Positions 21,455-53,725 of a stretch of DNA of 64,000 nucleotides are shown one piece after another; the stretch's first letter is position 1, and the number at the start of each line of letters is the position of its first letter. The position numbers were made by a program, and so were the translations under genes. The notes under the pieces were generated by a model. The model did not search any database and was not told the origin of the DNA. It was given only the letters and a program-made list of their open reading frames with translations. The DNA comes from Fibrobacteria bacterium (GTDB taxonomy: Bacteria > Fibrobacterota > Fibrobacteria > UBA5070), in contig JAMIIV010000004.1 in the NCBI GenBank assembly GCA_035913415.1, forward strand, positions 57,767 through 121,766. The letters are read 5' to 3'.

Positions 21455-22773
21455 GGTCTGCCTTCGAAGGAGAGGGGTTCGCCGGAGAGGGAACGCAAAC
21501 GCAGGGCCAATCCCGCTTCGCGCAACGACAACTGGGAGAGGCGGGCGCGCAGTTCGCTTTCGCGGAGCGTGGCGTCCAGGAGATCGTCGGGCTGCGAGGC
21601 GCCGGACGCCACCGCTCCCGCCACCGCCTGGCGAGCTTCGGTTGCCGCCTCCAGGGCAGCAGACAAGGCATCGCGTTCGCCCGCGATCCTGTCTCGCTCG
21701 TCTCGAAGCAGCGCCCATTGCGTGTCGCGCTGCAACGTGGTTCTGGCGGCTTCCAGCTCCAGGGCGCGCGATTCGGCCAGGAGCCGCCGCGAGGACGCCG
21801 AGCGCTCGAAGCCGTCGAACAGGTTCCACTGGGCCTGCACCCCGGCCACGCCCCAGGTGGTCCAGCCTTCGCCGAACTGGTTCACGCCGGGATCACCGGT
21901 CCGCACGCCCGCTTGGGCGGCCACCACGGGCCATCGTCCCGATGTGGCCGCGCCACGGGCTTCCTGGATCGATCCCGCCTGCTCCTTCAGGGCGCGTGCC
22001 AGCCACGATTCGTCGGGTTCCGCCGGGACGGACTCCGGACAGAATCCGACATCCAGCGAGTCCGCGAGGGAGCCCGGCCAGGCGATTCCCGCCAGGGCGC
22101 GGAACTCGGCGGCCAGGCTGTCCACGACGCGTCGCGTGGCGAGCGTGTCCGCCACCGCGCGCAGCAGTTCGGCTTTCGCCTGCAGGCTCTGGGCCCGGGT
22201 CGAGGTCCCGCCCTTCTCGCGCGCTTGCCAGGCCGCCATCCACGACGCCTTCGCCTGGACCCGGTCGCGGCGCAGGCGAAGCTCCACCGCTTGGATGCGC
22301 AGACCGAGGTCCACAAGCCCCATCTGCAGCGCGAGCATCGAGCGAACCTGCCGACCTTCGTGCCGCGTGGCCTCCAGGGCTCGGACTTCCCGCGCTCGGG
22401 CGTGTCGCGAAGAAAAACCGGAGAACAGCACCCAACTGGCCGTGAGTCCGGCCTCGATCCTGTCGTGGTCGCCCAGTTCCCTTTCCATGGTGAGCGGACG
22501 CGCCCCGGGAACGGGGGACGGCAGGGAGAGCTCCAATGTGGGGACTTCCGACACGTATTGCCAGCTTCCCGTCGCGTCCAGCCGCGGCAGCAGCGAGGCC
22601 CGGGTCTGGGCGACGGCCTCTTCGCGCGCCGTCTCGCGCTGGCGTGTGGCGGCCAGCGCTGGGTGGGTGGCTTCGAGGTGGCTCCACACGGCAGCCAACG
22701 GGTGCGGTTCGCAGGCGGCCTTCGCCAACGCCGACGACACCAGAACGAGGATCCATGCGCGCGCGGCGGTCAT
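21451..22773 (-). CDS. TolC-family outer-membrane efflux protein
   Basis: Internal Met MTAARAWILVLVSSALAKAA (signal peptide). Two-repeat OEP architecture, 440 aa. Confidence 0.8.
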   Translation of the reverse strand: MTAARAWILVLVSSALAKAACEPHPLAAVWSHLEATHPALAATRQRETAREEAVAQTRASLLPRLDATGSWQYVSEVPTLELSLPSPVPGARPLTMERELGDHDRIEAGLTASWVLFSGFSSRHARAREVRALEATRHEGRQVRSMLALQMGLVDLGLRIQAVELRLRRDRVQAKASWMAAWQAREKGGTSTRAQSLQAKAELLRAVADTLATRRVVDSLAAEFRALAGIAWPGSLADSLDVGFCPESVPAEPDESWLARALKEQAGSIQEARGAATSGRWPVVAAQAGVRTGDPGVNQFGEGWTTWGVAGVQAQWNLFDGFERSASSRRLLAESRALELEAARTTLQRDTQWALLRDERDRIAGERDALSAALEAATEARQAVAGAVASGASQPDDLLDATLRESELRARLSQLSLREAGLALRLRSLSGEPLSFEGRP

Positions 22774-36443: not shown

Positions 36444-38651
36444 TCAGGGAGCGGGTACGAGAAATGCTCGGCGCGTGGCGGGAGAGGTCATCTCGACGAC
36501 GATCGCCCCCCGGGCGGGTGGCAGTTCCAGGCGGGCCACTCCGTCACCGGAGCGGGACGAAGACAAAATTCGACCGTCGAGCGAGCGGCACCGGAAGTGC
36601 GTATCCTGACCTGGACCGATGCCCTCGATTTCGAGGGTGTTCCCGTCGATCCTCCGCCAGCGGGGAACGATCCTGTGGGAGGAGGTCGTGGCCGCGGAGG
36701 ATTGGCAGGGTTTTCCCGGAGGGCACCAGAGGTAGGCGAAGATCTTCCCCTTTCCGTCCTCCTCGGCAAAGACGACGCGTTCGCCATTGGACCGGACGGT
36801 CACGGTCAAGGGGTGGAAGATGTCCGTCGCGCCCGCGTACCAGCCTACGGTGGAATCGGGAGCCAGATGCCCGATCCGCTCGCCCGTCGCCAGCGACAGC
36901 ACCGAGATCTCTCCGCGGCATCGCATGGTCCCGCCCTTGGGACCTTTGGAGCCTTCGAGGTCGATGCACAGGGCGTCCGGACCGCGGTCGCCGTGGGCGA
37001 CGTACACGAACTCGGAATCGGCGGTGAATCCCGCGGGGAGGATCATGTCGTAGGTGTTCACGTCCAGGCGAGGAAGCACCGCAGGGCCGCTGTCGAGGTA
37101 GGGAAAGGAGATGCGGGAGGACCGGCGGTTGACGGAATCCGACCAGTTGCGGATGGCATGCAGGAAACTCGGGTACTTGCTTTCCGATCCCGAGATCAGC
37201 ATGAGGTCGATGTCCTGGAGGTAGCGCAGGCGCAGGGCGTCTCCGGAGCCTTCCGTGAAAGGCACGACCTCCTTCCGGATGGCGGCCAGGTTCCAGCGGG
37301 GAACGCCGCTCGGGTCGACTCCGGCGAAGGGCATGACTGTGATGCCGCGCCCCCCCAGGCGGATGGTGCCGTCGTCGGCGATGTCGATGGCCTTCACATA
37401 GGGGTAGACGATGTCGAACAGGGCGAATTCCCGCGTCTGCACGCGCCCGTCGCCATCGAGATCCTGCCAGGCCCAGCGGCGATTCAGGGGGGTGCCGGCC
37501 GGGATGGAAGGACGGATGGAATCCATCCAGGGACCGGCCGAGGTGCCGGCAACGGTGAATACGGCGCAGGGTGCCGCGATTTCCTCTCCCGGAAGAATGC
37601 GGAACACGGCCAGGTAGTCGGATCGCATGGAAGTGGTGAACAGGAATCTGCGACCGTCCAGGATGCGGATCCAGGCGGTGGCCATGGGAGCCTGGAGTCG
37701 GATGTCGTCCGGGAATCGGAACGGATCGAGAGAAACGCCGGCGAAGGTCCAGGACCTTCCCGGGGGTCGTGTCCAGTCCATCGCGAAGCGCTTGGAGACC
37801 ATGTGGACCGAGCGCCCTTCCGTTCCGGGTTCGGCTTCGGCGGAATTGACGAAGGCGAGTCCCTGGACCTGCCACAGCAAGGACGAATCCTGTCCGGAAA
37901 AAACGCGGATGTCTGTGCCGCCCATGGTCTGCATGGGGATGCCCGTGTTGCCCACGTAGACGTTCCCGGCACTGTCCACCCCGACCCCGCGGATGCCCCA
38001 GAATCGCCGGGGACCGGTAGCACCGGGGACGGGCCCGGCGAAGACGCCGCCGCGGACGCCGAACGTACGCGACCTGGTCCAGCCTCCCGGTCCGCGTGCG
38101 AGGATCTTGATGTCCTGGTCGGGTCCGTTGTCGGCCACCAGCAGATTGCCGGCAAGGTCGAAGGCGATGGCGGTGGGGTCTTCGATGCTCCGGAAGGTCG
38201 TGCCATCGTTGCAGGCCACGTGGGGGGTGGAGTCGCCGACCGGAGGAGGGGGAAGCTTGTACAGGAAGGCGCGGCCGTAGAAGTTCTCGATCCGGCAGGT
38301 GTCCCGCCCCCGCGCCGCCATCCTGGACGTGGTGTTTGCCAGCCACCAGTTCTTGTCAATGCGGCGGCCGTTGTGGTAGGCCGCGTTGGGGGCATGTCCC
38401 TCGTCCCAGAAGCTCTTCGTGAGCACCAGGGGCTTAGGGAACTGGTGTCCCGGCACATACACGACGGACATGTCCTCGATGAAGTTCTGGATGTGGTCCT
38501 CGGGCCTGCCGGAAGTGTTGGCCAGCCAGTGGATGGTGGCCGGCAAACGCGGCGAGGCGGCCGACAGCAGATCCAGGGAGGCGAGAAGGATGGACAGGAT
38601 CAACGGGATTCCTCCGCCAGGAAACGCCCTGCACCGGGCAGTGGCCGCCAT
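36444..38651 (-). CDS. secreted NHL-repeat/beta-propeller protein with C-terminal sorting-domain-like tail (735 aa)
   Basis: Internal Met of the spurious 1378-aa ORF. Signal peptide MAATARCRAFPGGGIPLILSILLASLDLLSAASP. NHL-like repeats (DLAGNLLVADNG, VDSAGNVYVGNTG). Confidence 0.6.
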   Translation of the reverse strand: MAATARCRAFPGGGIPLILSILLASLDLLSAASPRLPATIHWLANTSGRPEDHIQNFIEDMSVVYVPGHQFPKPLVLTKSFWDEGHAPNAAYHNGRRIDKNWWLANTTSRMAARGRDTCRIENFYGRAFLYKLPPPPVGDSTPHVACNDGTTFRSIEDPTAIAFDLAGNLLVADNGPDQDIKILARGPGGWTRSRTFGVRGGVFAGPVPGATGPRRFWGIRGVGVDSAGNVYVGNTGIPMQTMGGTDIRVFSGQDSSLLWQVQGLAFVNSAEAEPGTEGRSVHMVSKRFAMDWTRPPGRSWTFAGVSLDPFRFPDDIRLQAPMATAWIRILDGRRFLFTTSMRSDYLAVFRILPGEEIAAPCAVFTVAGTSAGPWMDSIRPSIPAGTPLNRRWAWQDLDGDGRVQTREFALFDIVYPYVKAIDIADDGTIRLGGRGITVMPFAGVDPSGVPRWNLAAIRKEVVPFTEGSGDALRLRYLQDIDLMLISGSESKYPSFLHAIRNWSDSVNRRSSRISFPYLDSGPAVLPRLDVNTYDMILPAGFTADSEFVYVAHGDRGPDALCIDLEGSKGPKGGTMRCRGEISVLSLATGERIGHLAPDSTVGWYAGATDIFHPLTVTVRSNGERVVFAEEDGKGKIFAYLWCPPGKPCQSSAATTSSHRIVPRWRRIDGNTLEIEGIGPGQDTHFRCRSLDGRILSSSRSGDGVARLELPPARGAIVVEMTSPATRRAFLVPAP

Positions 38652-40405
38652 ACCCCAGGATGGGAGCCCGCGATCCGGCAGAAGGCCATCCCTCGCGGGG
38701 GAGTGAAACTGCCGGATGGACCGGCGATACGGACCAGGTTCGTGCCGCGCAGGTCCCGGACTTCGAAGGTCGCTCCGTCGGGGATGCCTTCCACCAGGAA
38801 CCTTCCGTTCCGCGGAAAAATCCGGAGGGTAGAGTTTGCCGCACCCTTGCGGCGGGGCTTGGCTTCGCCGATCGAGGCCGGGGGCGCATTGCGTTGGAAC
38901 AGGCTCAACAGCAGCGCTTTCCGGTCGGTCTCCTGATCGCCGCGCAGGTCCTCCATCGTTTCGGTGTGCTCGACACTCCACCCGTGGAATTCGCGGTAGG
39001 CGTGGTAGGTCCAGTCCCAGCCTTCGTGTTCCAGGATGGCCGTGACGTCGCGCAGCCACTTGGTGGCGCTTCCCTGCGGAGCCCAGCGAATGCAGGAGAA
39101 CTCGCCGACATAGATCGGGACCCGGTAGCGATTCTGGTACTCCACGGCGGGGCGCATGGCCTGGTGGAGCCGTGCCGAGTCGTAGGCGATCCCGTCGATG
39201 GTGCCGGGATAGATCGCACCAATAGGGGGGGAGGTCGGTCCGATGCCCTGGTGCGTGAGGGTGTAGGGTCGGTAGAAATGGAAGGAGTAGACGATGTTGC
39301 GCAGGTCCCATCCTCGATCCGATCCGAGGGGGCGCAACTGGGCGAAGCGTTCCAGATCGGAGAGTACGGGTTCCACGACGATGGGGGTTTCGGGATCCAC
39401 CGACCGGATGGCGCGGCAGAGGGTGTCGGCCAGTTCGTTCCAAAGCAGGGCTCCTTCGCGCCACTGTCCTTCGGGAGGTTCGTTGGCCAGGTCGTATCCG
39501 ACCACGACCTCCTGGTCCTTGTACCGTTGCGCGATGCGCTTCCAGGCCGAGATCAGCTTGCCCTGGGCGGATCGACTCAGGAAGAGTCCGCTGGACATCT
39601 GGTGCATCTCCAGGATGAGATGCACTCCATGGGCTTGGCAATGCGGGAGCGCCTGGTCGATGCGCGACAATTCCCGCTCCAGGAAGATCTCGTAGTCGGG
39701 ATGCAGCAACGCGGTGTCGATCCCCGACCCGGCGTTCATCTGCCAGCGCATCACGTTGCCTTTCCAAGCGGACCCGAATACGGCGATCGAGGCGGAATCG
39801 ATCGGGGTCTTCGTCATCACGCCGCGAAGCCGGGGCCCGAACGGCCGCGCAATGGGGAGCAGACTGTCCCGGGCGGGGGGCATCACCGCGGATCCGATCC
39901 GGTCGATACGAATGCTGTCGAAGAGTACCGTTCCGGACATCGATTCCAGACCCAGCGTGAGATCCGCACGGGTGGCCTTTTCGGGGATCGTCACGATCAT
40001 CGAGGATCGGGTCCATCCATAAGCCCCGAGCGTGTCCGGCCACGGCAATTGGGGATTGCTGGAGGTCCCGTCGGCCCGTTTCACGCCCAGCATGACCTTC
40101 ACCCCGTTGAAGTGGCGGGGCTTGGCGGACAAGCCGAAAGCGCGTGAACAAGCCGAGACCCGGTAGATGCCTCCGGCGACGGAATCCGTCCCGAGGGCAT
40201 GGGAGATGTAGGTCGCCGACAGGCTGTCGATCCGCGTCACCTGGAGCGCCGTGCGCCCGGAATCGAGAACCAGGCGGTAGCGAGAGGAGTCGGCGAACAG
40301 CGCGCGGGTCTGCTCGTAGGTGTCGAAGTCGGCTTCCAGGGCCACGGTGCTGGAAAGGCCAAATGACAGCACAATGGGAACGATGCGTGAAAGCTGCGAA
40401 GTCAT
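38600..40405 (-). CDS. glycoside hydrolase family 5 (cellulase/mannanase-type) with C-terminal sorting-domain-like tail
   Basis: Signal peptide MTSQLSRIVPIVLSFGLSSTVA. GH5 catalytic motifs VVGYDLANEP (acid/base NEP) and YVGEFS (nucleophile). Overlaps the downstream gene start by 52 nt. Confidence 0.8.
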   Translation of the reverse strand: MTSQLSRIVPIVLSFGLSSTVALEADFDTYEQTRALFADSSRYRLVLDSGRTALQVTRIDSLSATYISHALGTDSVAGGIYRVSACSRAFGLSAKPRHFNGVKVMLGVKRADGTSSNPQLPWPDTLGAYGWTRSSMIVTIPEKATRADLTLGLESMSGTVLFDSIRIDRIGSAVMPPARDSLLPIARPFGPRLRGVMTKTPIDSASIAVFGSAWKGNVMRWQMNAGSGIDTALLHPDYEIFLERELSRIDQALPHCQAHGVHLILEMHQMSSGLFLSRSAQGKLISAWKRIAQRYKDQEVVVGYDLANEPPEGQWREGALLWNELADTLCRAIRSVDPETPIVVEPVLSDLERFAQLRPLGSDRGWDLRNIVYSFHFYRPYTLTHQGIGPTSPPIGAIYPGTIDGIAYDSARLHQAMRPAVEYQNRYRVPIYVGEFSCIRWAPQGSATKWLRDVTAILEHEGWDWTYHAYREFHGWSVEHTETMEDLRGDQETDRKALLLSLFQRNAPPASIGEAKPRRKGAANSTLRIFPRNGRFLVEGIPDGATFEVRDLRGTNLVRIAGPSGSFTPPRGMAFCRIAGSHPGVWRPLPGAGRFLAEESR

Positions 40406-40480
40406 GGGCGACACCTGGAATGCGGGCGAGCGGGATCGGGGAGAGCCCGAGGAGATCATTGTACCACCACACGGAAGACG

Positions 40481-41080: not shown

Positions 41081-41098
41081 ATTCAACTCCCGTGCCAA
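41081..41098 (-). promoter_or_regulatory. candidate sigma-54-like promoter TTGGCACGGGAGTTGAAT (non-canonical -12 TTGA)
   Basis: Perfect -24 TGGCAC. The -12 element is TTGA rather than TTGC. Lies about 85 nt upstream of the 40998 start codon. Confidence 0.25.
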
Positions 41099-41273
41099 TG
41101 TGCCGCACCGCTGGGTACGAGAGATCGAGTGTAGGGTGGTCGCCGGGGAAACGGAACGGTGGGTTCCATCGAGGTACCTGATCCCCCGGAAGTTCCTCCA
41201 AACACCTGGGCCCAAGAAACGAAAGAGGCCGACGTCTTCCGACTTCGGCCTCGCGCGTGTTTGTGGTTGTGGA

Positions 41274-41775: not shown

Positions 41776-41793
41776 ATCAACGAATGTGCCAAG
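41776..41793 (-). promoter_or_regulatory. candidate sigma-54-like promoter TTGGCACATTCGTTGATG (non-canonical -12 TTGA)
   Basis: Same architecture as the motif at 41081..41098. Lies about 55 nt upstream of the 41723 start codon. Confidence 0.25.
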
Positions 41794-41883
41794 CCGTGCC
41801 GGGCAGACGTGCCGCAAAAGGGCCCTGCAGGAAATCGGAAGCGGGAGTTCCGGAACCTGCACCCAGCTTCGCCTAGGGGAGGA

Positions 41884-43641: not shown

Positions 43642-43660
43642 CGGCAACTCGCGGGCCAAG
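43642..43660 (-). promoter_or_regulatory. sigma-54 promoter TTGGCCCGCGAGTTGCC (-24 GG / -12 GC, canonical spacing)
   Basis: Reverse complement of plus-strand cggcaactcgcgggccaag, about 35 nt upstream of the 43609 start. Confidence 0.4.
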
Positions 43661-43778
43661 TGGTCCGAGACACGGGATTTTGGGACTCCCCAGCCACCAA
43701 GAAAGAAAAAGCGGAACCAGAGGTTCCGCTTCCGGCGAAAAAACCGTTTCCAGCCCCAGAGGCGGGGCCGGAGCAGGC

Positions 43779-44003: not shown

Positions 44004-44138
44004 GATGAGATTCTCCGGAGGGTGAGATGGGCAACTCCTGCTTCGGGCTGTGGAAAGCCAAGCAGGGGGTGGGACCAGCATACCCCGGTTTTCCCGGATC
44101 CGCCGCTCGATTTTTGAAATCGCGTTGACAAACAAGTC

Positions 44139-44162
44139 ACCTGACTGGCGGAATCCGTCGCG
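44139..44162. promoter_or_regulatory. perfect 24-bp palindrome CGGAATCCGTCGCGACGGATTCCG (candidate dimeric regulator site)
   Basis: Read from the sequence. No flanking T-tract. Adjacent to the left end of repeat copy B. Confidence 0.3.
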
Positions 44163-44173
44163 ACGGATTCCGG

Positions 44174-44444
44174 AATCGATGCGCTCAGAGCCTGGGAAAA
44201 ACCGATGCACCAGTAAGCCGCTCGTCCTGAGGAAGGGCGCCCCTCCCCCGCTCACCCTGAGGCGGCCCTTTGGGCCGTCTCGAAGGGGGAGGGTGGCGGC
44301 GGCACGCTGGGCACAACATCTTGTGACCGCGAATCCACTGCCCGCCCTTCGAGAGCTCTCCTGAGCAAGGTCGAAGGGCGCGAGGCAGAGCCTCGCTCCT
44401 CAGGACGAGCGGTTGATTTCGGCCGCTCCGAGGTTTTTTCTCAC
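44174..44444. repeat. nested-palindromic ~270-bp element, copy B (longer version of copy A at 26573..26763, opposite orientation)
   Basis: CTCAGAGCCTGGGAAAAACC...GCCGCTCGTCCTGAGGA...GGGCACAACATCTTGT...TCCTCAGGACGAGCGG...GGTTTTTTCTCAC. Both ends terminate in U-tracts on the respective strands. Confidence 0.5.
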
Positions 44445-44467
44445 CCTTTCAGGCATGGTGGTGACGG

Positions 44468-46204
44468 TCAGCCTTCGAGGTCGGGAGGGGCGTACATCCC
44501 CAGCCGGCGCAGGAGGTCGCGCAGCACCTTGCGATCGATCCCCAGGATGGCGCCGGCCTGCGTCAGGTTGCCTCCGGAGCGCGCCATGGCCGCTTCCACG
44601 GCCGCGCGTTCGGCGGCCTCGCGCGCCTCGGCGAGGGTGCCCAGGGGAGCTGCGGCCTCGGGCAGGCCCAGGTGCTCGGGAAGGATGCGTTCCCCCGCGG
44701 CCAGCAGGAGCGAACGCTGGATGCTGTTTTCCAGCTCGCGGACGTTTCCTGTCCACGAGTGCCGCAGCAGGGCCTTTTCGGCCGCCCTTCCGAGTCCACC
44801 GAAAGGCACCCCGAATTCGCGGGAGGCCTTGTGGGCGAAGACCCGCGCCAGGGGGAGCACGTCGTCGGGTCGGTCCCTCAAGGGGGGCAGCTTCACGGTC
44901 GCCACGTTCAGCCGGAACAGGAGGTCCTGCCGGAAACGACCTTCGCGGACCAGGGCTTCCAGGTCGCGGTGGGTGGCGGCCACGATCCGCACGTCGACAC
45001 CGATCTCGCGCGAGGATCCGACCTTCCGGATGGTCTTTTCCTGCAGGGCGCGGAGCAGGGCGGCCTGCAGTTGCGCGGGAAGCTCGCCGATCTCGTCGAG
45101 GAACAAGGTGCCTCCGCCGGCGGTCTCGAAGAGACCCATGCGCTCGCCCGTAGCACCGGTGAAGGCGCCGCGCTCGTGGCCGAAAAGCTCGGACTCCATG
45201 AGGGATTCGGGGATCGCGGCGCAGTTGATGGCCACGAAGGGCCCCTGGGCGCGGGGTGAAGACAGGTGGACCAGGCGGGCGAGCTTCTCCTTGCCGGTGC
45301 CCGTTTCACCCAGCACCAGCAGCGGCACGCTGGCCGAGGCGAAGCGGCGGGCGTGGGCGATGGCCGCCAGCATGTTGGGCGCGAAGGCCAGCAGCCCGCC
45401 GTTGGGCTCTCCGCCCAGAAGCGACAGGGCCGCGCGGTCGTCGTGGTGGCGGCGAGCGGCGCCCAGCACGCGGGCCAGCGAGGCGAGCAGCCGGTCGAAG
45501 GCCGCCCGTTCGGGCTCGCCGAAGGGAGCGGCGCGGCCGGTCCGGTGCAGGTAGAGGCAGCCCAGGGGGGCGGTGGCCTCGGTGGCGCGGATCGGGGCGC
45601 ACAGGATGGAGCGGATGTCGGACACCCGCAGCGAAGGACCGGCGAGCGAAGCGCCCTCTTCGCCGGATTCCGACCACAACACCGCCGCGCCGCACTCCAG
45701 GCACGAGCGGACCGCCGAGCGCGAGGGCTTGGGGGCTCCGGTGGAGGGCCAGACGGAAACCGTCTCGGAGAAGTCGTCGCCGCCCAGCAGGGCGCCGCCG
45801 TCGGCGTCGAGATGGGCGGCGGCGAATTCCAGAAGGCGGGGCAGCACCGCCGAGGGGTCGTCGGCTTCGAGGAGGGTCTCGATGGCGGCCAGGACGGGTT
45901 CGACCGGAAGGCGGACGGGCTCGTGGCGGCGCAGGATTAGGACGGTCCCGCCCGAGAGGCGGATCTCGCCGCCATCCACAAGGTCCACGGGAATGCCGGG
46001 GGTGGCCGGTTGCCCTCCGATCCGCAGGCCCTTGACCTGGGGCTCGGCCACGACGCGGTCGGGCAGGCTCAGAAGCTGGACCTCGACGGCCTGGCCGCCC
46101 GGGAGACGCAGGTCGCATCCCGGGCCGGATCCGAGGAGCGAGAGTTTCCTCTCGAGGGGGAGACGGATTCCGTCAACAGTCTGCAGGATCCAGGGATGGG
46201 TCAT
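44468..46204 (-). CDS. sigma-54-dependent transcriptional activator with N-terminal FHA domain (FHA-GAF-AAA+-HTH)
   Basis: Internal Met [34 protein letters not shown] (FHA-like). AAA+ motifs GETGTGKE and [16 protein letters not shown]-terminal Fis-type HTH. ATGA overlap with the kinase stop. Confidence 0.85.
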
Positions 46205-47517
46205 CGAGGGTCTTCGTGGTTCGGAGGAAGGTCTGGCGAGGTGCGAACCTCGCCGAGCCAGACGGTGTCCAGGATCAGGAGGCCGACCGCGTCGCGCAAT
46301 TGGATGCGGTGACGGCCTGTTCCCAGCAGGAGCCGGCCGTCGGAGGGCATGTCGGTGGGGAGGCCGTCCACCCGCAGCGAAGCTCCCGGAGGCAGCGAAG
46401 GCAAGGGGAAGCTCTCGATCGCGGTGGGGCCGAACGGGTGGGAGGGGTCTTCCCAGCCCGGATGCCGCGGAGTGGCACGTACCGGGGCGGTGGTGGCGCG
46501 GGCAGGGAGGCGGGCCCAAAAGGCGATGCCGACCGCCGCCGCCAGCAGGACCGCTCCGAGGAGGATCCAGAAGGATCGGGGTCTTCGGGACGAGGCGCGC
46601 AGGCGTGCGTAGCGCCCCAGATCGGGCAGAAGGGTCTCGGGGTCGTCGGAGCGTTCCAGTCGTTCCCGCTGCCAGCGCCAGGCATCGTTCCAGGCGCCGG
46701 AGGCCTCGGCCTGACGGATGGCTTGGGTGAGCAGGGTTTCCAGGCGAGACCAGGCTTGCCGGCGCAGGCATTCCCGGGGCCAGTCCTGCGGACGGGATCC
46801 CAGGGACCCGGCCAATTCGAGGGCGGTGGGCCGGCACTGCGGGTTCAGGTCGACGGCGCGCGCCACCAGGGGCAGGTCGGTGGCCAAGGACGACAGGCCT
46901 TCCTCGAGCACGGCCGAGGTCCATTCCTCACGGGTGGTCGTCCAGGCATGTGGAATGCGGCCCAACAGGCGCAGGCACAACACACCCAGCGCGAAGACGT
47001 CGGAGGCCGGGGTTGCTGGTCGACCGGCCAGTCGTTCGGGAGAGAGGGTTTCCCAGGTTCCCTGGAGGGGGAGGTCACCGATGGAGGCCATACCCAGGTC
47101 GATGGCCAACACCTCACCGGTGGGGATGGCCAGCAGATTGGCCATCGAGAGATCTCCGTGGACAACATCTCGGGAGTGCAGGGACGCGACGGCCCGTGCG
47201 GCGCTGGACACCAGGGCGAGACGTTCGTTGGCGTCGAGGTCGGGGGGGAGGTTGTCCAGGGGTACGCCGTCGATCCAGCTCATGGCGATCCAGGGGCGGG
47301 AGCTCTCGAGGTTCTTGTCGAGGAGGGCTGGTACGGGGGCGCCAGGAAGGCGCTCCAGGAGTTCGGCTTCGGCGCGCAGTTCGTGGGGGTCGCGGGGGTC
47401 GGTCTTCACGACCACCCATCGCCCGGGGACATCCTGCCACGCCAGCCAGGTGCGGGCTTGTCCGCCGCCGCCCAGGGACACCCCGGCGGAAAAACCCTGG
47501 GGCGGGGAGGGTTTCAC
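46201..47517 (-). CDS. membrane-anchored Hanks-type Ser/Thr protein kinase (atypical catalytic loop)
   Basis: GTG start in a GTGA overlap with the TPR gene stop. Gly loop GVSLGGGGQARTW, the lysine in VVVK, catalytic loop HGDLSMANLL, DLG in place of DFG, one TM helix, and a ~110-aa extracytoplasmic tail. Confidence 0.7.
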   Translation of the reverse strand: MKPSPPQGFSAGVSLGGGGQARTWLAWQDVPGRWVVVKTDPRDPHELRAEAELLERLPGAPVPALLDKNLESSRPWIAMSWIDGVPLDNLPPDLDANERLALVSSAARAVASLHSRDVVHGDLSMANLLAIPTGEVLAIDLGMASIGDLPLQGTWETLSPERLAGRPATPASDVFALGVLCLRLLGRIPHAWTTTREEWTSAVLEEGLSSLATDLPLVARAVDLNPQCRPTALELAGSLGSRPQDWPRECLRRQAWSRLETLLTQAIRQAEASGAWNDAWRWQRERLERSDDPETLLPDLGRYARLRASSRRPRSFWILLGAVLLAAAVGIAFWARLPARATTAPVRATPRHPGWEDPSHPFGPTAIESFPLPSLPPGASLRVDGLPTDMPSDGRLLLGTGRHRIQLRDAVGLLILDTVWLGEVRTSPDLPPNHEDPR

Positions 47518-48272
47518 GGCGTGGACAGTCCCAGGGAATCGCGCAGGCGTTGGACGGATTGCTGGAACCAGGCCTGTCCGGGAGATCGTCGAAGTCCTTC
47601 TTCCCAGTACAACAAGGCGCCTTCCGGGTCGCCGTCCTTCTCGGCGAGTTCTCCCAGGCTCGCCCAGGCGGGCAGGTAGGCGCTGTCGGCGGCGATGGCC
47701 CGCGTGAACCAGCGTTCGGCGGCGACGGCGTCGCCTTCGCTTCGCGCCAGGGTTCCCAGGTACTGGGCCGAAGGGGCGTGGGGAGCCAGGGTGGCCTGCG
47801 CTTGTTCGGCGGCGTTGCGGGCTTGCGGGATGCGCCCTTCGCGCTGCCAGCACAACGCGGCCTGGAACAGGGCGTCGGCGCGGTCATGGCTGGTGGACAG
47901 CGCGCTGTCCAGGCGCTCGACGATGGCGAAGTCGCGTGCCACCGACAGCCAACGCGAAGCCGAGTCGAGGCTGGCTTCGGCCGCTTCGCGCTCGCGACCG
48001 GCGCGTGCCAGGGCCAGTCCCATGCGGGCTTCGGCTCGGGAGGGATCCTTTTCGACCAGGTGATCGTAGAGCGCGATGGCGCGTGGCCAGTCTTCCAGTT
48101 GCAGCAACAGATCGGCGCGTTCCAGCTCGGGTTCGCGGCATCCGGCCAGCCCCAGAGCACCCCACAAAAGCAACGATTGGCCCCCGTTCAGGAGCCAACG
48201 CGAGATCGAGGAGCGCTTGCGGCTTGGGTTTTCGATATTGGAGGGTCTCGTGACCAAGGAAAGACCGATCAT
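47514..48272 (-). CDS. TPR-repeat lipoprotein
   Basis: Internal Met of ORF 47514..49709. ...LLLWGALGLAGC lipobox and at least three TPR-like repeats. The start overlaps the divergent bioH start by about 23 nt, so the start is uncertain. Confidence 0.6.
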   Translation of the reverse strand: MIGLSLVTRPSNIENPSRKRSSISRWLLNGGQSLLLWGALGLAGCREPELERADLLLQLEDWPRAIALYDHLVEKDPSRAEARMGLALARAGREREAAEASLDSASRWLSVARDFAIVERLDSALSTSHDRADALFQAALCWQREGRIPQARNAAEQAQATLAPHAPSAQYLGTLARSEGDAVAAERWFTRAIAADSAYLPAWASLGELAEKDGDPEGALLYWEEGLRRSPGQAWFQQSVQRLRDSLGLSTP

Positions 48273-48921
48273 CTGGATCGGAGGCTGGGCCTCCGACATG
48301 CACTGCTGGGAAGATACTCTGGAAGCGGCCCTGTCGGGTTTCCGCCCACGGTACGTCTCGGCCCACACCGTTCTCGGAGGCATCGACCGCCTGCAGGGCC
48401 TGCTCGAGGCGTCCGGCCCCGGCACCGTGCTGGCAGGCTGGTCCATGGGGGTTTTGCTGGTCGAGCGCCTGCTGCGCGACGGACTGGTTCCCCCCGAGAT
48501 GCCGGTCATCCGGGTCTGCCCGTTCCTGGACTTCTGCGATCCTGCCGGCCCCTGGAAACCCCGCGTGCTGCACCGCATGAGCCATCGGCTCTTCGGAGAC
48601 GCCCACGGTGTGCTCGAAGATTTCGCCGACCTGGCGGGTATCCCCCAGGGCCCGCTGCGCCGGATCTGGCTGGACCAGGCCACGCAACTGGGAGAAGACA
48701 ATCTCGTCGAAGGCCTGGAGGTGCTGGGGGAACTGCGGTTTGCGGGTCCCTGGGCCCCGGCGCGTGGGGGGTTCATCGTTTCGCCCGACGATGCCGTCAG
48801 CCCTGCCACACCCACACCTGCGGAATTCACCCGCACGATGCCTCGCGGATCGGGCCATGTGCCCTTCCTGGCGCACCCGCAGGCCTTCCAGCAGGCGCTG
48901 CAGGAACTGGTCGGGCCGTGA
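48250..48921 (+). CDS. bioH: BioH-like alpha/beta-hydrolase (pimeloyl-ACP methyl ester esterase candidate)
   Basis: ...PIIWIGGWASDMHCWE aligns, from memory, with the E. coli BioH HLVLLHGWGLNAEVW region. Nucleophile elbow GWSMG. GTG start after GGAGGG, with alternative TTG starts upstream. Confidence 0.55.
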   Translation: MTKERPIIWIGGWASDMHCWEDTLEAALSGFRPRYVSAHTVLGGIDRLQGLLEASGPGTVLAGWSMGVLLVERLLRDGLVPPEMPVIRVCPFLDFCDPAGPWKPRVLHRMSHRLFGDAHGVLEDFADLAGIPQGPLRRIWLDQATQLGEDNLVEGLEVLGELRFAGPWAPARGGFIVSPDDAVSPATPTPAEFTRTMPRGSGHVPFLAHPQAFQQALQELVGP

Positions 48922-49703
48922 AGAACTGGAGGGCGATGCGCTTCGATCGCGCCTCGGGCACCTACGAACACGTCACGCCGGTCCAGGCCGACATGGCACA
49001 CCGTCTGGCGGGGCTCGTCCCGGTCGACTCCCCGCCCGCCCGGGTGCTGGAACTGGGCTGCGGCACGGGTCATCTGACGCGGGCGCTGCTGCGCCGTCTT
49101 CCCGCTTCGACCTTCGTGGTCACCGATCTCGCGCCGGGCATGCTCTCGGCCTGTGCCGAGCGGTTGAACGAACTCGATCGCGACCGGGTGGAGCTGCGGG
49201 AGCTGGACGCCCGCGCCCCGCGCCTGGACGAGTCCTTCGATCTGCTCGCCTCGTCGGCGGTGGTCCAGTGGTTTCCCGACTTGGCAGGCCATCTGCGCGC
49301 CTGCCGAGCGTTGCTGCGGCCGGGTGGCCGATACGCACTCTCGGGATTCTGTCGCGGCAACTTCCCCGAGCTGGAGGCCCTGCTGTCCACGCCGCCATGG
49401 GATTTCCCGGAGCCTCCGGGCCACGCGTTGTCGCATGCCGAAGCCCAGGCCAAGGAGGCAGGATTCGAGGTGGTGCTGCGCGAAGACGCCGCCGTGGAGC
49501 TGGTCTATCCTTCGGCGCTGGAATTCCTGCGCGCCATCGCCCTGGCGGGCGCCTCCCGAGCTCCGCGCGAGGGACGTCCGCTCACCCGTGCCCTGCTGCG
49601 GCGGCTGCTGGATACATACGATGCGCGCAACGCGGTGGCGGGTGGTGTGAAAGCCACCTGGAAGCCCTGGTTCCTGCTGCTGCGCGTCCCCGCCGCGACC
49701 TGA
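48918..49703 (+). CDS. bioC: malonyl-ACP O-methyltransferase BioC
   Basis: GTGA overlap with the bioH stop. RFDRASGTYEHVTPVQADMAHRL aligns with the BioC N-terminus. SAM motif LELGCGTG. Confidence 0.7.
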   Translation: MKNWRAMRFDRASGTYEHVTPVQADMAHRLAGLVPVDSPPARVLELGCGTGHLTRALLRRLPASTFVVTDLAPGMLSACAERLNELDRDRVELRELDARAPRLDESFDLLASSAVVQWFPDLAGHLRACRALLRPGGRYALSGFCRGNFPELEALLSTPPWDFPEPPGHALSHAEAQAKEAGFEVVLREDAAVELVYPSALEFLRAIALAGASRAPREGRPLTRALLRRLLDTYDARNAVAGGVKATWKPWFLLLRVPAAT

Positions 49704-49821: not shown

Positions 49822-50262
49822 TCAGACGTTTTCCGTCTCGGCCGGTGCACCCAGGATCTCCGGGAGCCTGGGGTGGGGACGCCGCGGACGGCCCCCCGGA
49901 CCCATGCAGACGTGCACGGTGTGTCCGCTCGAGAGCAAGGTGTCGCCGTGGCCGACGCGCACCACCTGGTAGTCGAAGCGAAAGCGCAGGCCGTCCAGCA
50001 TGCGGCCGGTCATGAGCACTTCGACCTCGTCGCCGTAGCGGGCGGGCGAGGTGTAGTCGCAGTGGGCCGACAGGACCGGGATCGCGAAGCCGTCGCGCTC
50101 CAGGCCGGCGTAGGGAAGCCCCCACGATTCGAGCGCTTCGGTGCGGGCGACCTCGAACCACACGAGATGGTTGGCGTAGTACACGAACCCCATCTGGTCG
50201 GTCTCGGCGTAGCGGACGCGGATGCGCGTGGTGTACCGGCGCCCGGCGGGCAGCAGGGTCAT
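49822..50262 (-). CDS. 4HBT/YbgC-family acyl-CoA thioesterase
   Basis: Internal Met MTLLPAGRRYTTRIRVRYAETDQMGFVYYANHLVWFEVAR is a hot-dog-fold signature. ATGA overlap with the regulator gene stop. Confidence 0.75.
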   Translation of the reverse strand: MTLLPAGRRYTTRIRVRYAETDQMGFVYYANHLVWFEVARTEALESWGLPYAGLERDGFAIPVLSAHCDYTSPARYGDEVEVLMTGRMLDGLRFRFDYQVVRVGHGDTLLSSGHTVHVCMGPGGRPRRPHPRLPEILGAPAETENV

Positions 50263-51743
50263 TCGTCGTCGCCGGAGAAGCGGGTCATGCCCAGGTCGCG
50301 GATCTTCTGCTGCAGGCTCTGGCGGTGCATCTCCAACGTGGCGGCGGCGCGGCTGACGTTGCCTCCCGATTTTTCCAGATGCATCTGGATGAAGCGACGT
50401 TCGAAGTCGTCGACCACCAGCGCCTTGGCCTCCCGGAACGGCAGGTCGCATCGGACCGGAGGCAGACCGAGCCAGCCGTCGGCGGCAGGTGGTGCCAAGC
50501 CGGGTGCGCCGGAATCCGGGGGAGCGGGCAGATCGGCCAAATCGGGCAACCCCGCCGCATCCGTCACTCCCGGGGGGCATGGTCCGACCACCGAGGCGGG
50601 CAGTCCCAACACCTCCGGGCCCACTTCCGTGGAGCGTGCCAGCACGCTGGCCCGTTCCACGACGTTGCGCAGCTCGCGCACGTTCCCGGGCCAGTCGTAG
50701 GCCAGCAGGGCTTTCTCGGCGCGCGCGGCAAAACGCAGCGGGCGCTGCCCCGCGTAGTGGGCCAGGAAGGCGCGGGCCAGGAGCAGGACGTCTTCGCCGC
50801 GTTCGCGCAGGGCGGGAAGCCGCACCACCAGCACTTCCAGGCGGTAGCGGAGGTCGTCGCGGAAACGTCCTTCCTGCCCCATGGCCTGGAGGTCGCGGTG
50901 GGTGGCGGCCACCACGCGCAGGTCCACTTCCACCGGCTGGGTGGATCCCACGGGCTCGACCTGACGTTCCTCGAGCACCCGCAGCAGGCGCGTCTGGGCT
51001 TCCAGAGGCATGTCGCCGATTTCATCCAGGAAAAGGGTGCCACCTTCGGCCTGGCGGACCTTTCCGATCTTGGCGGTCAGCGCCCCGGTGAAGGCGCCTT
51101 TTTCGTGCCCGAACAGTTCGGCCTCGATGAGCGAAGAGGGAAGCGCGCCGCAATTGACCGCCACAAACGGCCCCTTGCGGCCCGAAAGCTCGTGGAGCCG
51201 CCGTGCGACCAGCTCCTTGCCCGTTCCGGATTCGCCCAGAAGCAGCACGCTGGCCGATGCCGGACCCATCAAGGTCACGTCTTCCAGCAGGCGCCTCATG
51301 GCGGGGCTTTCCCCCAGCACGCCCAGGCGCGGCCGTCGCGAGTCGAGTTCTTCGCGCAGGCGTTCGGATTCGGCACGGGAACGGGCGAAGGCGGCGGCGC
51401 GCTCCAGGACCATCACCAGTTCGTCGGGGTCGGCGGGTTTGATCAGATAATCGTGGGCGCCGCGGCGCATCGCCTCGACGGCGATCTTCTCGCTGCCTTG
51501 GGCGGTGAACAGCACCACCGGTGGGGCCGACGGGCGCTGGGACAAGACCGACAACACACTCAGGCCGTCCATCCCTCCCATCTGGAAATCCAGCAGCACG
51601 GCATCGAAGGGCCGGGCCGCGGTGACCTTCAGACACTCCTCGCCGGATCCGGCCTCGACCACCTCGTGCCCGGCGGAGGTCAGCAGACGCCGGGCGCCGT
51701 AGCGGGCGGCGGGTTCGTCGTCGACGACAAGAAATCGGCTCAT
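50259..51743 (-). CDS. sigma-54-dependent two-component response regulator (NtrC family)
   Basis: Receiver domain MSRFLVVDDEP. AAA+ motifs GESGTGKE and GAFTGA. C-terminal HTH. GGGAG ribosome-binding site before the second ATG. Confidence 0.85.
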   Translation of the reverse strand: MSRFLVVDDEPAARYGARRLLTSAGHEVVEAGSGEECLKVTAARPFDAVLLDFQMGGMDGLSVLSVLSQRPSAPPVVLFTAQGSEKIAVEAMRRGAHDYLIKPADPDELVMVLERAAAFARSRAESERLREELDSRRPRLGVLGESPAMRRLLEDVTLMGPASASVLLLGESGTGKELVARRLHELSGRKGPFVAVNCGALPSSLIEAELFGHEKGAFTGALTAKIGKVRQAEGGTLFLDEIGDMPLEAQTRLLRVLEERQVEPVGSTQPVEVDLRVVAATHRDLQAMGQEGRFRDDLRYRLEVLVVRLPALRERGEDVLLLARAFLAHYAGQRPLRFAARAEKALLAYDWPGNVRELRNVVERASVLARSTEVGPEVLGLPASVVGPCPPGVTDAAGLPDLADLPAPPDSGAPGLAPPAADGWLGLPPVRCDLPFREAKALVVDDFERRFIQMHLEKSGGNVSRAAATLEMHRQSLQQKIRDLGMTRFSGDDE

Positions 51744-53725
51744 GGACGCTCCCAAAACAGGCGGAAGACCGTGCGACCGGGTTCACCCAGGTGGACAACG
51801 CGTCCTTGGGCCTCCTCGGCGCGCTTGCGGCAAATGTAAAGCCCCAGTCCGGTACCTCCTCGCGAGGCCAGCGGGCGGAACAGGCGGGGACGGAAATCGT
51901 CGGGGATCTCGCCATCGTTGGACACCGAAAGGGACGGGCCGTCGGCCGAGAGTTCGATCCGCACGACCGACCCATGTGGCGCGTGCTGCAAGGCGTTGAG
52001 CACCAGGTTGAAGACCACGGCCTTGATGTCGTTTTCCGACATCGGCATGGGGACCGCGCCGTCGGGACAGGAGAGCTCCAGGCGGATGCCCCGACTGCGG
52101 GATTCCTGGTCGAGCAGGCCGCAGACCGAGCGCAATGTGGCCACGGCGTCTTCGCAGGTCTCGCGGTCGCGGGCGAAGTGGAGCATGCGTCGGACGGTGG
52201 CGTCCAGCCGGTCTACCTCCGAGGCGATCATCGCGAGATCCTCGCGGAGCACAGATCCCTCCGGCGCTTCCCGCCCGGCGGCGTGGGCGATGTTGCGGAT
52301 GGCCGAGAGGGGATTCTTGATCTCGTGGGCGGCCGAGGCCGAAAGCAGGCCGAGCATCGCCAGGCGCTCGCCTTCCTGCAGCCGGCGTTCGGTCTCGAGG
52401 CTGCGCTGGAGCTCGGCGCGGGAGTCCAGGGCCGACTGCAGGCTGCCCAGCACGCCGGAAAGCCGCGCGTAGACCTCCGCCGGCAGGCGCGAGGCCTTGC
52501 GGCTGGCGCCCAGGACGATGGCGATGTCGGGGGGGGCTTGGTCGCCGCCTTCCGGGCGCAGGCGCACGGGAAGCAGAAGCCTGCCTCCGAGCTCCTCCCA
52601 GGCGAAGGTGGTCTCGCGGTCCTTGGCGCGGCGCAGCGAGGCGACGCGGCGCGGGCCGCCGTCGCGCAGGATGGTGGCCACGGCGGGGCGCGAGGCGTCC
52701 AGCACCGCCGTCGGGCAAGACAGAATCCGTCCGAGGCATCGGGCGACGAACGAGGGGAGGTCGGTGGGGAGACGCCGGCCGCGCAGCCGTTCCTCGAGGG
52801 CCGAAAGGGCCTTGCCCTCGCGCTGGAGTCGCCAATTGAGCGCGTGCGAGAGCGTGTGCACGGCCACCGCGGGCAAGGGGCCCAGCAGCAGGAAGAACCC
52901 GACACCGGCCATGACCAGGGTGGCCATGCGGTCGAGGGCGGTGCCGGGGAAGAGGAACTTGTGCACCATGAACGCGGTGAACGGAAGCGCGAAGGACAGC
53001 GATCGCCACAGCGAAGCGCGGGTCACTTCCAGGGCCACGGTCCGGGTGCGGTAGGCCACCAGCAGCAGCGCGGCGGGGGGCAGCAGGTGGGCGAGATCGA
53101 ACAGCAGGACCCACTTGACCTCCTGGGCGCGGTAGCCGCCCTGCATCATCTTGGCCGCCAGCGACCCGACCAGCAGGGCGCCGCTCCACCACAAGGCCTT
53201 CTCCATGGGGGCCGCGACCTTGTGGCCCACGACGGGAATGCGGTGCGCGGCCCGTCGCAGGAGAAGCGCCCCGGCGAAGCAATGGAGGGCATCCGACAGC
53301 AGGAACAGGCGGACCAGGTCCTCGATGTTGCGCAGGAAGCTGTTCATGGGCCCCGAGGCGATGGGGCCGAACCCTGTGGCGATGAACAGGGCGGGGATCA
53401 CGTACCACACAAAAGGCGGGACGCGGCGCATCTGGGTCCAGACCGCCAACCCGTGCAGGAGCATCCCCGCCTGGATGTTGAGCAGGCTTCCCTTCAGGAT
53501 GTCCAGGCACATCGAGAACACCGGGAAACGCCCGATGTCGAGGGATTCGAGATTCAGCGTGATGAATGTGAGGGCGTACCAGGTGGACCAGCAGAGGGTC
53601 CATCCGAACAGGATGGGGTTGTACCAGAGGGCGGCGGTATGGCGCGAGCGCGCCGAACCGGCATGCACGTGGGCCAGAGCGCCCGCGGCGACCAGGATCA
53701 GCTCCAGGAGCTGCGCGGTGTTCAT
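51740..53725 (-). CDS. sensor histidine kinase with 7TM receptor domain
   Basis: Seven N-terminal TM helices, H-box HEIKNPLSAI, and an HATPase_c domain. ATGA overlap with the regulator gene start. Confidence 0.8.
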   Translation of the reverse strand: MNTAQLLELILVAAGALAHVHAGSARSRHTAALWYNPILFGWTLCWSTWYALTFITLNLESLDIGRFPVFSMCLDILKGSLLNIQAGMLLHGLAVWTQMRRVPPFVWYVIPALFIATGFGPIASGPMNSFLRNIEDLVRLFLLSDALHCFAGALLLRRAAHRIPVVGHKVAAPMEKALWWSGALLVGSLAAKMMQGGYRAQEVKWVLLFDLAHLLPPAALLLVAYRTRTVALEVTRASLWRSLSFALPFTAFMVHKFLFPGTALDRMATLVMAGVGFFLLLGPLPAVAVHTLSHALNWRLQREGKALSALEERLRGRRLPTDLPSFVARCLGRILSCPTAVLDASRPAVATILRDGGPRRVASLRRAKDRETTFAWEELGGRLLLPVRLRPEGGDQAPPDIAIVLGASRKASRLPAEVYARLSGVLGSLQSALDSRAELQRSLETERRLQEGERLAMLGLLSASAAHEIKNPLSAIRNIAHAAGREAPEGSVLREDLAMIASEVDRLDATVRRMLHFARDRETCEDAVATLRSVCGLLDQESRSRGIRLELSCPDGAVPMPMSENDIKAVVFNLVLNALQHAPHGSVVRIELSADGPSLSVSNDGEIPDDFRPRLFRPLASRGGTGLGLYICRKRAEEAQGRVVHLGEPGRTVFRLFWERP

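Follow-up and report, generated by a model that had tools for sequence, protein, structure and literature searches.

An operon of three genes on the minus strand of contig JAMIIV010000004.1 from a Fibrobacteria bacterium (assembly GCA_035913415.1) encodes a tetratricopeptide repeat (TPR) lipoprotein, a membrane Hanks-type Ser/Thr kinase and a sigma-54 enhancer-binding protein (EBP), whose N-terminus is predicted to be a forkhead-associated (FHA) fold devoid of the canonical phosphothreonine (pThr) pocket. The operon was studied within a stretch of 64,000 nucleotides of this contig (positions 57,767 to 121,766; hereafter the window), to which all coordinates refer unless a locus label (L001, L002, etc.) precedes them. 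The best joint explanation of the data is that this trio forms a conserved envelope-to-sigma-54 module located upstream of its own regulon, a reading whose mechanism we infer and to which we assign a probability slightly better than even (about 0.55).

A conserved operon for a lipoprotein, a kinase and an activator

The three genes and the putative target genes located downstream are all encoded on the minus strand (Table 1), in a region of about 66-70% G+C. Direct reading of the junctions showed that the GTG start codon of the kinase gene (47517-47515) overlaps the TGA stop codon of the TPR gene (47516-47514) in the tetranucleotide GTGA, and that the ATG of the EBP gene (46204-46202) overlaps the TGA of the kinase gene (46203-46201) in the tetranucleotide ATGA. 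Identical 4-nt overlaps are called in most of the orthologous loci. An initial annotation, prepared from the letters of the window, had described these overlaps, the limits of the operon (44468-48272) and the nature of the three products, and all were correct, as judged from the junctions, from Pfam matches, from the lipobox of the first protein and from sequence relatives in the PDB.

Table 1. Position of the operon, of the domains of its activator, and of the candidate regulatory elements and genes located downstream.
Feature	Position in the window	Strand	Evidence and remarks
TPR lipoprotein gene	47514-48272	-	Pfam TPR matches, lipobox, orthologue alignment
Membrane Ser/Thr kinase gene, 438 aa	46201-47517	-	Pfam Pkinase, PDB relatives, orthologue alignment, hydropathy
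Sigma-54 EBP gene, 578 aa	44468-46204	-	Pfam, AlphaFold2 (AF2), Foldseek, hhalign
EBP FHA-like domain, residues 1-95	45920-46204	-	AF2, Foldseek, hhalign
EBP GAF domain, residues 116-244	45473-45859	-	Pfam PF01590, 27.9 bits (cut-off 22.4)
EBP AAA+ domain (Sigma54_activat), residues 275-437	44894-45382	-	Pfam PF00158, 225.5 bits
EBP HTH_8 domain, residues 528-562	44519-44623	-	Pfam, 27.1 bits
Small Ala/Lys/Pro-rich secreted protein gene, 74 aa	43779-44003	-	GTG start; N-terminal hydrophobic segment
Palindrome 1 (candidate UAS 1), AAGC-GGAAC-N5-GTTCC-GCTT followed by a T-run	43707-43733		Core 43713-43727, exact
P1, sigma-54-type promoter, TGGCCCGCGAGTTGCC	43643-43658	-	Consensus scan; 33 nt upstream of ATG 43609
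g144, Arg-rich secreted helical protein, 144 aa, first gene under P1	43175-43609	-	Signal-peptide-like N-terminus
Secreted protein gene, about 423 aa	41884-43155	-	Start GTG 43155 or ATG 43200
Palindrome 2 (candidate UAS 2), GGAACTCCCGCTTCC	41837-41851		One mismatch; 45 bp upstream of P2
P2, sigma-54-type promoter, TGGCACATTCGTTGA	41777-41791	-	-12 element TTGA
g149, His/Pro/Arg-rich secreted protein, 149 aa	41274-41723	-	Orthologue with 45% identity in L002/L012
Palindrome 3 (candidate UAS 3), GGAACCCACCGTTCC	41153-41167		Exact; 55 bp upstream of P3
P3, sigma-54-type promoter, TGGCACGGGAGTTGA	41083-41097	-	-12 element TTGA
g144b, Ala/Lys/His-rich secreted protein, 144 aa	40564-40998	-	Orthologue with 31% identity in L002/L012

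The first protein matches the Pfam families TPR_2, TPR_16, TPR_14 and TPR_19. A lipobox of the form L-[AGS]-[GSA]-C is present in 6/6 orthologues (mean column identity 63%), its Cys being invariant; it reads LAGC in the window and LASC, LGGC, LSSC or LSAC in the orthologues. The conservation of this lipobox indicates that the TPR protein is lipid-anchored and exposed to the periplasm. The start codon is uncertain, being either ATG 48272, which overlaps the 5′ end of a divergent alpha/beta-hydrolase gene, or TTG 48173, called on the identical public contig (L001). The length of the signal peptide is ambiguous for this reason; the Cys of the lipobox (codon 48140-48138, residue 45 if translation begins at ATG 48272) is unaffected.

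The second protein matches the Pkinase family (PF00069) over residues 15-206, with 52.9 bits for a cut-off of 31.7, as do all its 26 orthologues, and its best sequence relatives in the PDB are PknA, StkP and PknB (E-value 3.6e-13). Ten positions are invariant in 26/26 orthologues: K38 (the VAIK Lys) and E50 (the alphaC Glu), both aligned with the corresponding Lys and Glu of PknA, H120, D122 and N127 in the catalytic loop, G142 and the Mg-binding Asp D140 in the DFG motif, E161 in the APE motif, D173 and R229. The motifs themselves are divergent, as pointed out in the initial annotation and seen again in the alignment with PknA and the orthologues. The catalytic loop reads HGDLSMAN (residues 120-127), with a general form HGDLS(x)xN in which Gly or Ala occupies the Arg position, making it a non-RD kinase; the catalytic-loop Lys of HRDLKxxN, which is usual in Ser/Thr-specific kinases, is replaced by Ser in 23 of the 26 orthologues and by Ala in the three others; and the DFG position (residues 140-142 in the window) reads DLG in 19 of them and DFG in seven. 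This loop resembles those of RIO and Bud32 kinases (RIO1, 21.7 bits for a cut-off of 22; weak match to the NCBIfam Bud32 model). The loss of the VAIK Lys or of the catalytic Asp would have been a sign of inactivity; both are present, and the kinase looks catalytically competent from its sequence. A pseudokinase was rejected as the main interpretation, every catalytic residue being invariant.

Hydropathy analysis detected a single hydrophobic segment in the kinase (residues 313-339, positions 46501-46581) preceded by the motif RRPR, suggesting that the N-terminal catalytic domain is cytoplasmic and that the last ~100 residues (46204-46500) are extracytoplasmic, in agreement with the tail mentioned in the initial annotation. 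The juxtamembrane helical region is conserved, with invariant residues between W276 and R289. The AF2 model of the ectodomain is all-beta, a small beta-sandwich (pLDDT 73 overall, 83-91 in the core), and its sole notable match in the PDB, a weak one (E-value 0.028, TM-score ~0.5), is 9k1u_B, a chain of the RtkS-PpkA complex. A motif of this tail (PPGASLRVDG...G.H.I) looks PEGA-like by eye only; a PEGA identity was rejected, no Pfam PEGA match being obtained at E<=1 among the 26 orthologues.

Orthologues of this kinase (40-100% identity) were found only in Fibrobacteria-type metagenome-assembled genomes (MAGs) and metagenomes. The order TPR-kinase-EBP is present in L001-L006 and L008, as well as in 9/9 loci of GTDB species recovered with a TPR profile. 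The trio is thus co-conserved in the same gene order at all Fibrobacteria loci reached from the kinase, EBP or TPR sequences, with the exception of one EBP sub-clade (P0086-P0091, L007) considered below. A 937-aa protein combining Pkinase and TPR domains is encoded at L007, 3.5 kb upstream and on the opposite strand. L020, which belongs to the same Fibrobacteres MAG as L018, holds another copy of the trio that seems to be truncated; it consists of a partial TPR gene, a partial kinase gene and a gene for a 362-aa EBP without N-terminus.

More distant EBPs of other metagenomic lineages, with 43-46% identity (L009 and L010), are also preceded by genes encoding a TPR lipoprotein and a membrane Pkinase. 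In a Myxococcales MAG (L011), genes for a kinase, a PEGA-like protein, a TPR protein and an FHA-GAF-EBP are found together in a rearranged order. The existence of these diverged versions suggests that the trio is an old unit, mobile across phyla. The distant kinases have retained the catalytic-loop Lys (HRDIKPEN in L009, HGDIKPAN in L010) and the EBP of L010 still scores with Pfam FHA. By these comparisons, the Fibrobacteria version is the one that has degenerated furthest, with respect to the FHA pocket as well as to the catalytic-loop Lys of the kinase.

The FHA-like N-terminus of the activator

The GAF, AAA+ and helix-turn-helix (HTH) domains announced for the EBP were all recovered by Pfam (Table 1). 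Its GAFTGA motif is located at 45169, the Walker A and B motifs, including LFLDEIG, are readable in the sequence, and the AAA lid is clear. The N-terminus, annotated as an FHA domain, gave a different picture. No match to Pfam FHA (PF00498) was obtained with residues 1-104, even at E<=10, and none with NCBIfam; no Pfam FHA match is precomputed for any orthologue of the EBP, and a profile of 32 orthologous N-termini produced only insignificant matches among PDB sequences, with the FHA domain of CHFR at an E-value of ~1.

The fold of this region is nevertheless that of an FHA domain according to structure prediction. The AF2 model built from the 32 orthologues has 10 strands, compared with eleven in the canonical FHA beta-sandwich (pLDDT 92, pTM 0.82), and the top 50 Foldseek matches in the PDB are all FHA domains (probability 1.0, TM-score 0.7-0.8), including those of FhaA, Ki67, GarA, OdhI, Rad53 and EmbR. 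Comparison by hhalign of the orthologue profile with FHA domains taken from related EBPs of the FHA-GAF type gave a probability of 96.5% (E-value 8e-10). A profile search of 1.84 billion proteins recovered a single cluster of orthologues, then weak but significant matches; among the matches tested, 9/10 carry Pfam FHA or Yop-YscD_cpl (PF16697). The nearest full-length relatives of the EBP that are not orthologues are FHA-GAF-AAA+-HTH proteins, including some from Myxococcales. Both the model and the profile comparisons thus point to an N-terminus that has the FHA fold and is homologous to FHA domains.

Four residues of canonical FHA domains, namely an Arg, the Ser and His of a Ser-x-x-His motif and an Asn, are established as contacts of the phosphothreonine (Durocher et al. 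2000, cited in PMC2875238). In the EBP, the canonical Gly-Arg pair corresponds to G25-S26, the second residue being Ser in 27/32 orthologues and never Arg. The position of the pocket Ser is residue 38, which varies between Ala, Pro, Ser and Gln, and the His is replaced by an acidic residue, E41, in 26/32 orthologues. The beta6-beta7 loop, (S/T)-x-Asn-Gly in canonical domains, is two residues shorter and reads K58-G59 (K58 in 26/32). Gly25 is the only residue of the pocket signature that has been retained. The replacement of this set of residues (Arg, Ser, His and Asn) in all 32 orthologues makes canonical pThr reading by this domain unlikely. The part of the initial annotation that concerns fold and ancestry is therefore upheld, and the part that predicted FHA-mediated pThr recognition and a Pfam FHA score is not; of the three families that it proposed for checking, Pkinase and Sigma54_activat scored above threshold. 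In other words, FHA is a correct name for the fold of the EBP N-terminus and a misleading one for the function of pThr recognition that is attached to it.

These data bear directly on the pathway proposed at the outset, in which the kinase would phosphorylate itself or a partner on Thr and the FHA domain of the EBP would read the phosphorylated residue canonically, leading to sigma-54-dependent transcription. Such a mechanism operates in the pairs PpkA/Fha1, PknB/GarA and PknH/EmbR, the FHA fold and homology are present here, the kinase looks active, and the conserved basic residues of the domain (R19, K20, R33 and K58) could form a non-canonical phosphate site. We nevertheless consider this explanation improbable, given the composition of the pocket, the two-residue deletion in the beta6-beta7 loop, the absence of a Pfam FHA match and the lack of an invariant Thr in the activation loop of the kinase.

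FHA-like domains of the YscD/EscD type (PF16697) do not conserve the pThr residues and are thought to be phospho-independent interaction modules. Some relatives of the EBP score with PF16697, and the EBP of the window itself does not. The degenerate pocket, similar to that of the PF16697 domains matched by related EBPs, is compatible with another explanation, in which the kinase would serve mainly as a membrane scaffold or anti-activator, keeping the EBP inactive through its FHA-like domain and freeing the EBP upon envelope damage sensed by the lipoprotein and the ectodomain, without any need for phosphotransfer to the EBP. The gene overlaps, which imply coupled translation, and the conservation of the juxtamembrane helices would fit such a complex, and control of a sigma-54 EBP by an anti-activator has an established precedent in PspA/PspF. 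The invariance of all catalytic residues among the 26 orthologues, down to 40% identity, indicates in contrast that catalysis has been selected, and we regard sequestration as an equally improbable account.

Candidate operators, promoters and target genes

The region downstream of the EBP gene contains three sigma-54-type promoters (P1 to P3), each located downstream of a palindrome with the arms GGAAC and GTTCC (Table 1). The promoter that had been noted at 43642-43660 corresponds to P1, read from 43658 to 43643 and located before the secreted-protein genes. It deviates from TGGCAC-N5-TTGCW by two mismatches, with the GG at -24 and the GC at -12 in place. The more relaxed pattern TGGCMC-N5-TTGM occurs four times in the 64-kb window for 0.67 expected occurrences, and three of the four sites are clustered downstream of the EBP gene and on its strand. 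A further sigma-54-like element, TGGCCCTGCGTTTGC, is located at 21495-21509 on the minus strand and is unrelated to the trio locus. The -12 element TTGA of P2 and P3 is also observed in promoters of L002, L008, L018 and L019. No Rfam match was obtained between positions 40000 and 49000, and a consensus scan detected no sigma-70-like promoter.

The gap between palindrome 1 and P1 is 54 bp. The core of palindrome 1 recurs in exact form at the equivalent position in L002, L005, L006, L008, L013, L016, L018 and L019. Ten orthologous loci have essentially a single exact GGAAC-N5-GTTCC each, always a few hundred bp past the EBP gene, the count for L006 having been made by hand; a -24/-12-like element invariably comes 55 or 65 bp after it. 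The arms of the palindrome never vary, whereas the 5-nt loop, the flanks and the spacer are not conserved. Invariant arms, a free loop, a helically phased distance that changes by 10 bp at a time and a centre at about -80 to -100 would be expected of an EBP binding site, and we propose GGAAC-N5-GTTCC as the candidate upstream activating sequence (UAS) of this EBP.

Additional palindromes were observed outside of these pairs. A third exact GGAAC-N5-GTTCC is present in the window at 38797-38811, within the minus-strand gene of a GH5 cellulase (38600-40459), with no -24/-12 element after it. In L009, whose EBP has an HTH very similar to that of the window, GGAAC-N5-GTTCC is found right after the EBP stop codon (L009:6708-6730). 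In L010, the FHA-EBP gene is followed by a perfect promoter, TGGCACGAGGGTTGCA, with a different palindrome, GGGGCAAATTGCCCC, upstream of it (L010:6852-7180).

The first gene after the operon encodes the 74-aa protein and is followed by two terminator-like hairpins; a counterpart encoding 63-123 aa occupies the same position in L002, L005, L006 and L008. The spacer between the EBP gene and this small gene (44004-44467) has 464 nt, compared with 103-221 nt in the orthologous loci, and contains neither an Rfam match nor a clear terminator on the coding strand. The g144 gene has orthologues with 27-57% identity in nine loci, and its product has no Pfam match at E<=0.1 and no sequence match in the PDB. 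This protein had been called Spy-like, a label that we abandon: a profile of five orthologues does not find any Spy, CpxP or ZraP chain of the PDB at E<=10, and Pfam offers no support either. The ~423-aa protein encoded downstream of g144 is conserved at this position (26-34% identity). It has a signal-peptide-like N-terminus, ends with an aromatic residue (...SLLRW) and has no Pfam match; its sequence suggests that it is possibly an outer-membrane protein. The g149 and g144b products contain 10 His among 149 residues and 9 His among 144 residues, respectively, and match no family. This His content hints at metal binding.

Proposed pathway and its relation to known systems

We suggest that an envelope cue would be sensed by the TPR lipoprotein together with the kinase ectodomain, and that the kinase would then act on the FHA-like/GAF regulatory region of the EBP. 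The FHA-like domain would serve as a kinase-docking or regulatory module devoid of the canonical pThr pocket; the likeliest route would be either direct phosphorylation of the N-terminal region of the EBP or phospho-independent binding and release. Either event would free the AAA+ ring from the inhibition that the FHA-like and GAF domains exert on it, GAF domains being intramolecular inhibitors of EBPs in the case of PexR and NorR (PMC12754779). The EBP, bound through its HTH to GGAAC-N5-GTTCC, would open P1-P3 and induce the putative outer-membrane protein together with small secreted proteins rich in Arg, His or Lys, in what would be an envelope-directed response.

Several observations weigh against this pathway. 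Because the pThr-contact residues of the FHA-like domain are replaced, conserved gene linkage is all that ties the kinase to the EBP. No conserved Ser/Thr acceptor is identifiable in the FHA-like domain, nor is there an invariant acceptor in the activation loop of the kinase, where T154 is Thr, Ala or Ser among orthologues, and no PP2C phosphatase was found near the locus. A small molecule could also signal independently through the GAF domain. At the DNA level, rpoN is absent from the 64-kb window, and P2 and P3 have TTGA at -12 instead of the canonical TTGC, which may reflect either a lineage-specific sigma-54 consensus or weaker sites. Palindrome 1 has a GC extension and a T-run and doubles as a textbook intrinsic terminator of the small gene located upstream, and its conservation could come in part from this role; palindromes 2 and 3 have no T-run. 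Finally, the EBPs P0086-P0091 show ~60% identity and have the same FHA-like N-terminus, and their genes (L007:7001-10578) have no adjoining TPR and kinase genes, being followed by a CheA-like gene.

The existence of this sub-clade without kinase would also be expected if the kinase and the EBP were neighbours and not partners, the EBP being run by a ligand of its GAF domain, as in the GAF-only control known for NorR and PexR (PMC12754779), and the kinase having other substrates. P1-P3 may in that case be driven by an adjacent His kinase and a response-regulator-type EBP, since a second EBP with a GAFTGA motif and a receiver domain is encoded 4 kb upstream of the trio (50262-51755). Such an arrangement hardly accounts for the maintenance of the gene order and of the overlaps over 40-100% identity, even in the distant L009 and L010. 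Moreover, the His-Asp pair is missing beside the trio in L003, L006 and L008, and these loci retain the palindrome/promoter pair, so that P1-P3 are unlikely to be controlled by that His-Asp pair. We rate the hypothesis of unrelated neighbours as the least probable of those considered, by a little, and retain the envelope-to-sigma-54 module as the preferred interpretation.

The classical receiver-domain EBP located upstream of the trio on the minus strand combines Response_reg, Sigma54_activat and HTH_8 domains. Its gene comes before one for a 4HBT thioesterase (about 49822-50262) and, in L002 and L005, after a HisKA kinase gene. At all orthologous loci, the TPR gene has two divergently transcribed neighbours, an alpha/beta-hydrolase gene (48076-48921, plus strand) and an S-adenosylmethionine-dependent methyltransferase gene (48936-49703, plus strand), which form a BioH/BioC-like pair by architecture only.

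Jelsbak, Givskov and Kaiser (PNAS 102:3010, cited in PMC12288465) reportedly described in 2005 FHA-domain sigma-54 EBPs of Myxococcus xanthus, for which an input from Ser/Thr kinases is said to have been proposed. As in the EBP studied here, the receiver domain of these proteins is replaced by an N-terminal sensory domain of FHA type. The Fibrobacteria system differs by the loss of the FHA signature residues and of any Pfam FHA score, by the translational coupling of the EBP with a kinase and a TPR lipoprotein, by the presence of a candidate UAS and three target promoters adjoining the operon, and by its lineage.

Proteins with a similar arrangement control type VI secretion systems (T6SS) by threonine phosphorylation, the signal passing from the lipoprotein TagQ with TagR, or from RtkS, to the membrane kinase PpkA and then to Fha1 (PMC10482370). 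The resemblance concerns the lipoprotein or periplasmic partner, the single-pass Hanks kinase and the cytoplasmic protein with FHA fold. However, Fha1 has a canonical pThr pocket, lost here, and the output is the assembly of a machine in T6SS and sigma-54-dependent transcription in our system; no T6SS genes were called at any of the trio loci examined. In Actinobacteria, Hanks kinases control FHA regulators in the PknH-EmbR, PknB-GarA and PknG-OdhI pairs, EmbR being itself a transcription factor with an FHA domain; in contrast to the EBP of the trio, these regulators bind pThr canonically, and they act through a SARP-type regulator or on metabolic enzymes. The YscD/EscD proteins also have the FHA fold without the pThr residues, in the basal bodies of type III secretion systems.

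On the output side, the NtrB-NtrC and ZraS-ZraR systems share with the trio the AAA+ and HTH_8 domains, and their dyad UAS ~80-100 bp upstream of the -24/-12 promoter resembles the candidate arrangement seen here, whereas the trio has neither receiver domain nor histidine kinase, its input consisting of a Hanks kinase and a lipoprotein. The targets of the Zra and Psp systems are small envelope proteins, a trait that the putative targets of the trio would share. In Xanthomonas citri, the transmembrane Hanks kinase PknS directly phosphorylates the extracytoplasmic function (ECF) sigma factor EcfK (PMC13147305). A transmembrane Hanks kinase feeds the transcription machinery in that system, as proposed here, and no two-component relay is used; the difference from our case is that neither an FHA domain nor sigma-54 takes part.

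That FHA-domain EBPs receive their input from Ser/Thr kinases is an idea that goes back to Jelsbak et al. (2005), and kinase-FHA pairs are already known in T6SS and in Actinobacteria. The distinctive features here are the FHA domain without pocket, the otherwise intact kinase that is non-RD and without catalytic-loop Lys, the obligatory TPR lipoprotein, and the readable set of operators and promoters. We found no description of the trio in the literature that we searched, nor a paper that establishes the kinase acting on FHA-domain sigma-54 activators or its route, and queries combining FHA, bacterial EBP and kinase topics returned only T6SS and citation-only mentions. More tentatively, we suggest that the trio may represent a widespread, uncharacterised envelope-sensing pathway of Fibrobacterota, Myxococcota and other uncultured lineages, with a PEGA-like membrane kinase, a pocket-less FHA domain and GGAAC-N5-GTTCC as the cognate DNA site. 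Put forward jointly with this suggestion, and with the same reserve, is the possibility that the pocket-less FHA domain couples the kinase to the AAA+ module non-canonically, through phospho-independent binding or a new phosphate site, in functional replacement of the His-Asp relay of NtrC-type systems.

The loss of the pThr pocket in a protein whose companion kinase has kept its catalytic residues illustrates that the label FHA is insufficient to predict a mechanism, and leads one to ask by what means a Hanks kinase governs an AAA+ activator. Here, a single 8-kb stretch links the putative sensor, a lipoprotein, to its kinase and activator and further to the candidate operator and the three presumed target promoters, and this compact locus, conserved in many genomes, means that the pathway could be rebuilt in the test tube or in E. 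coli. The trio would offer an entry point into the envelope-directed regulation of uncultured Fibrobacteria.

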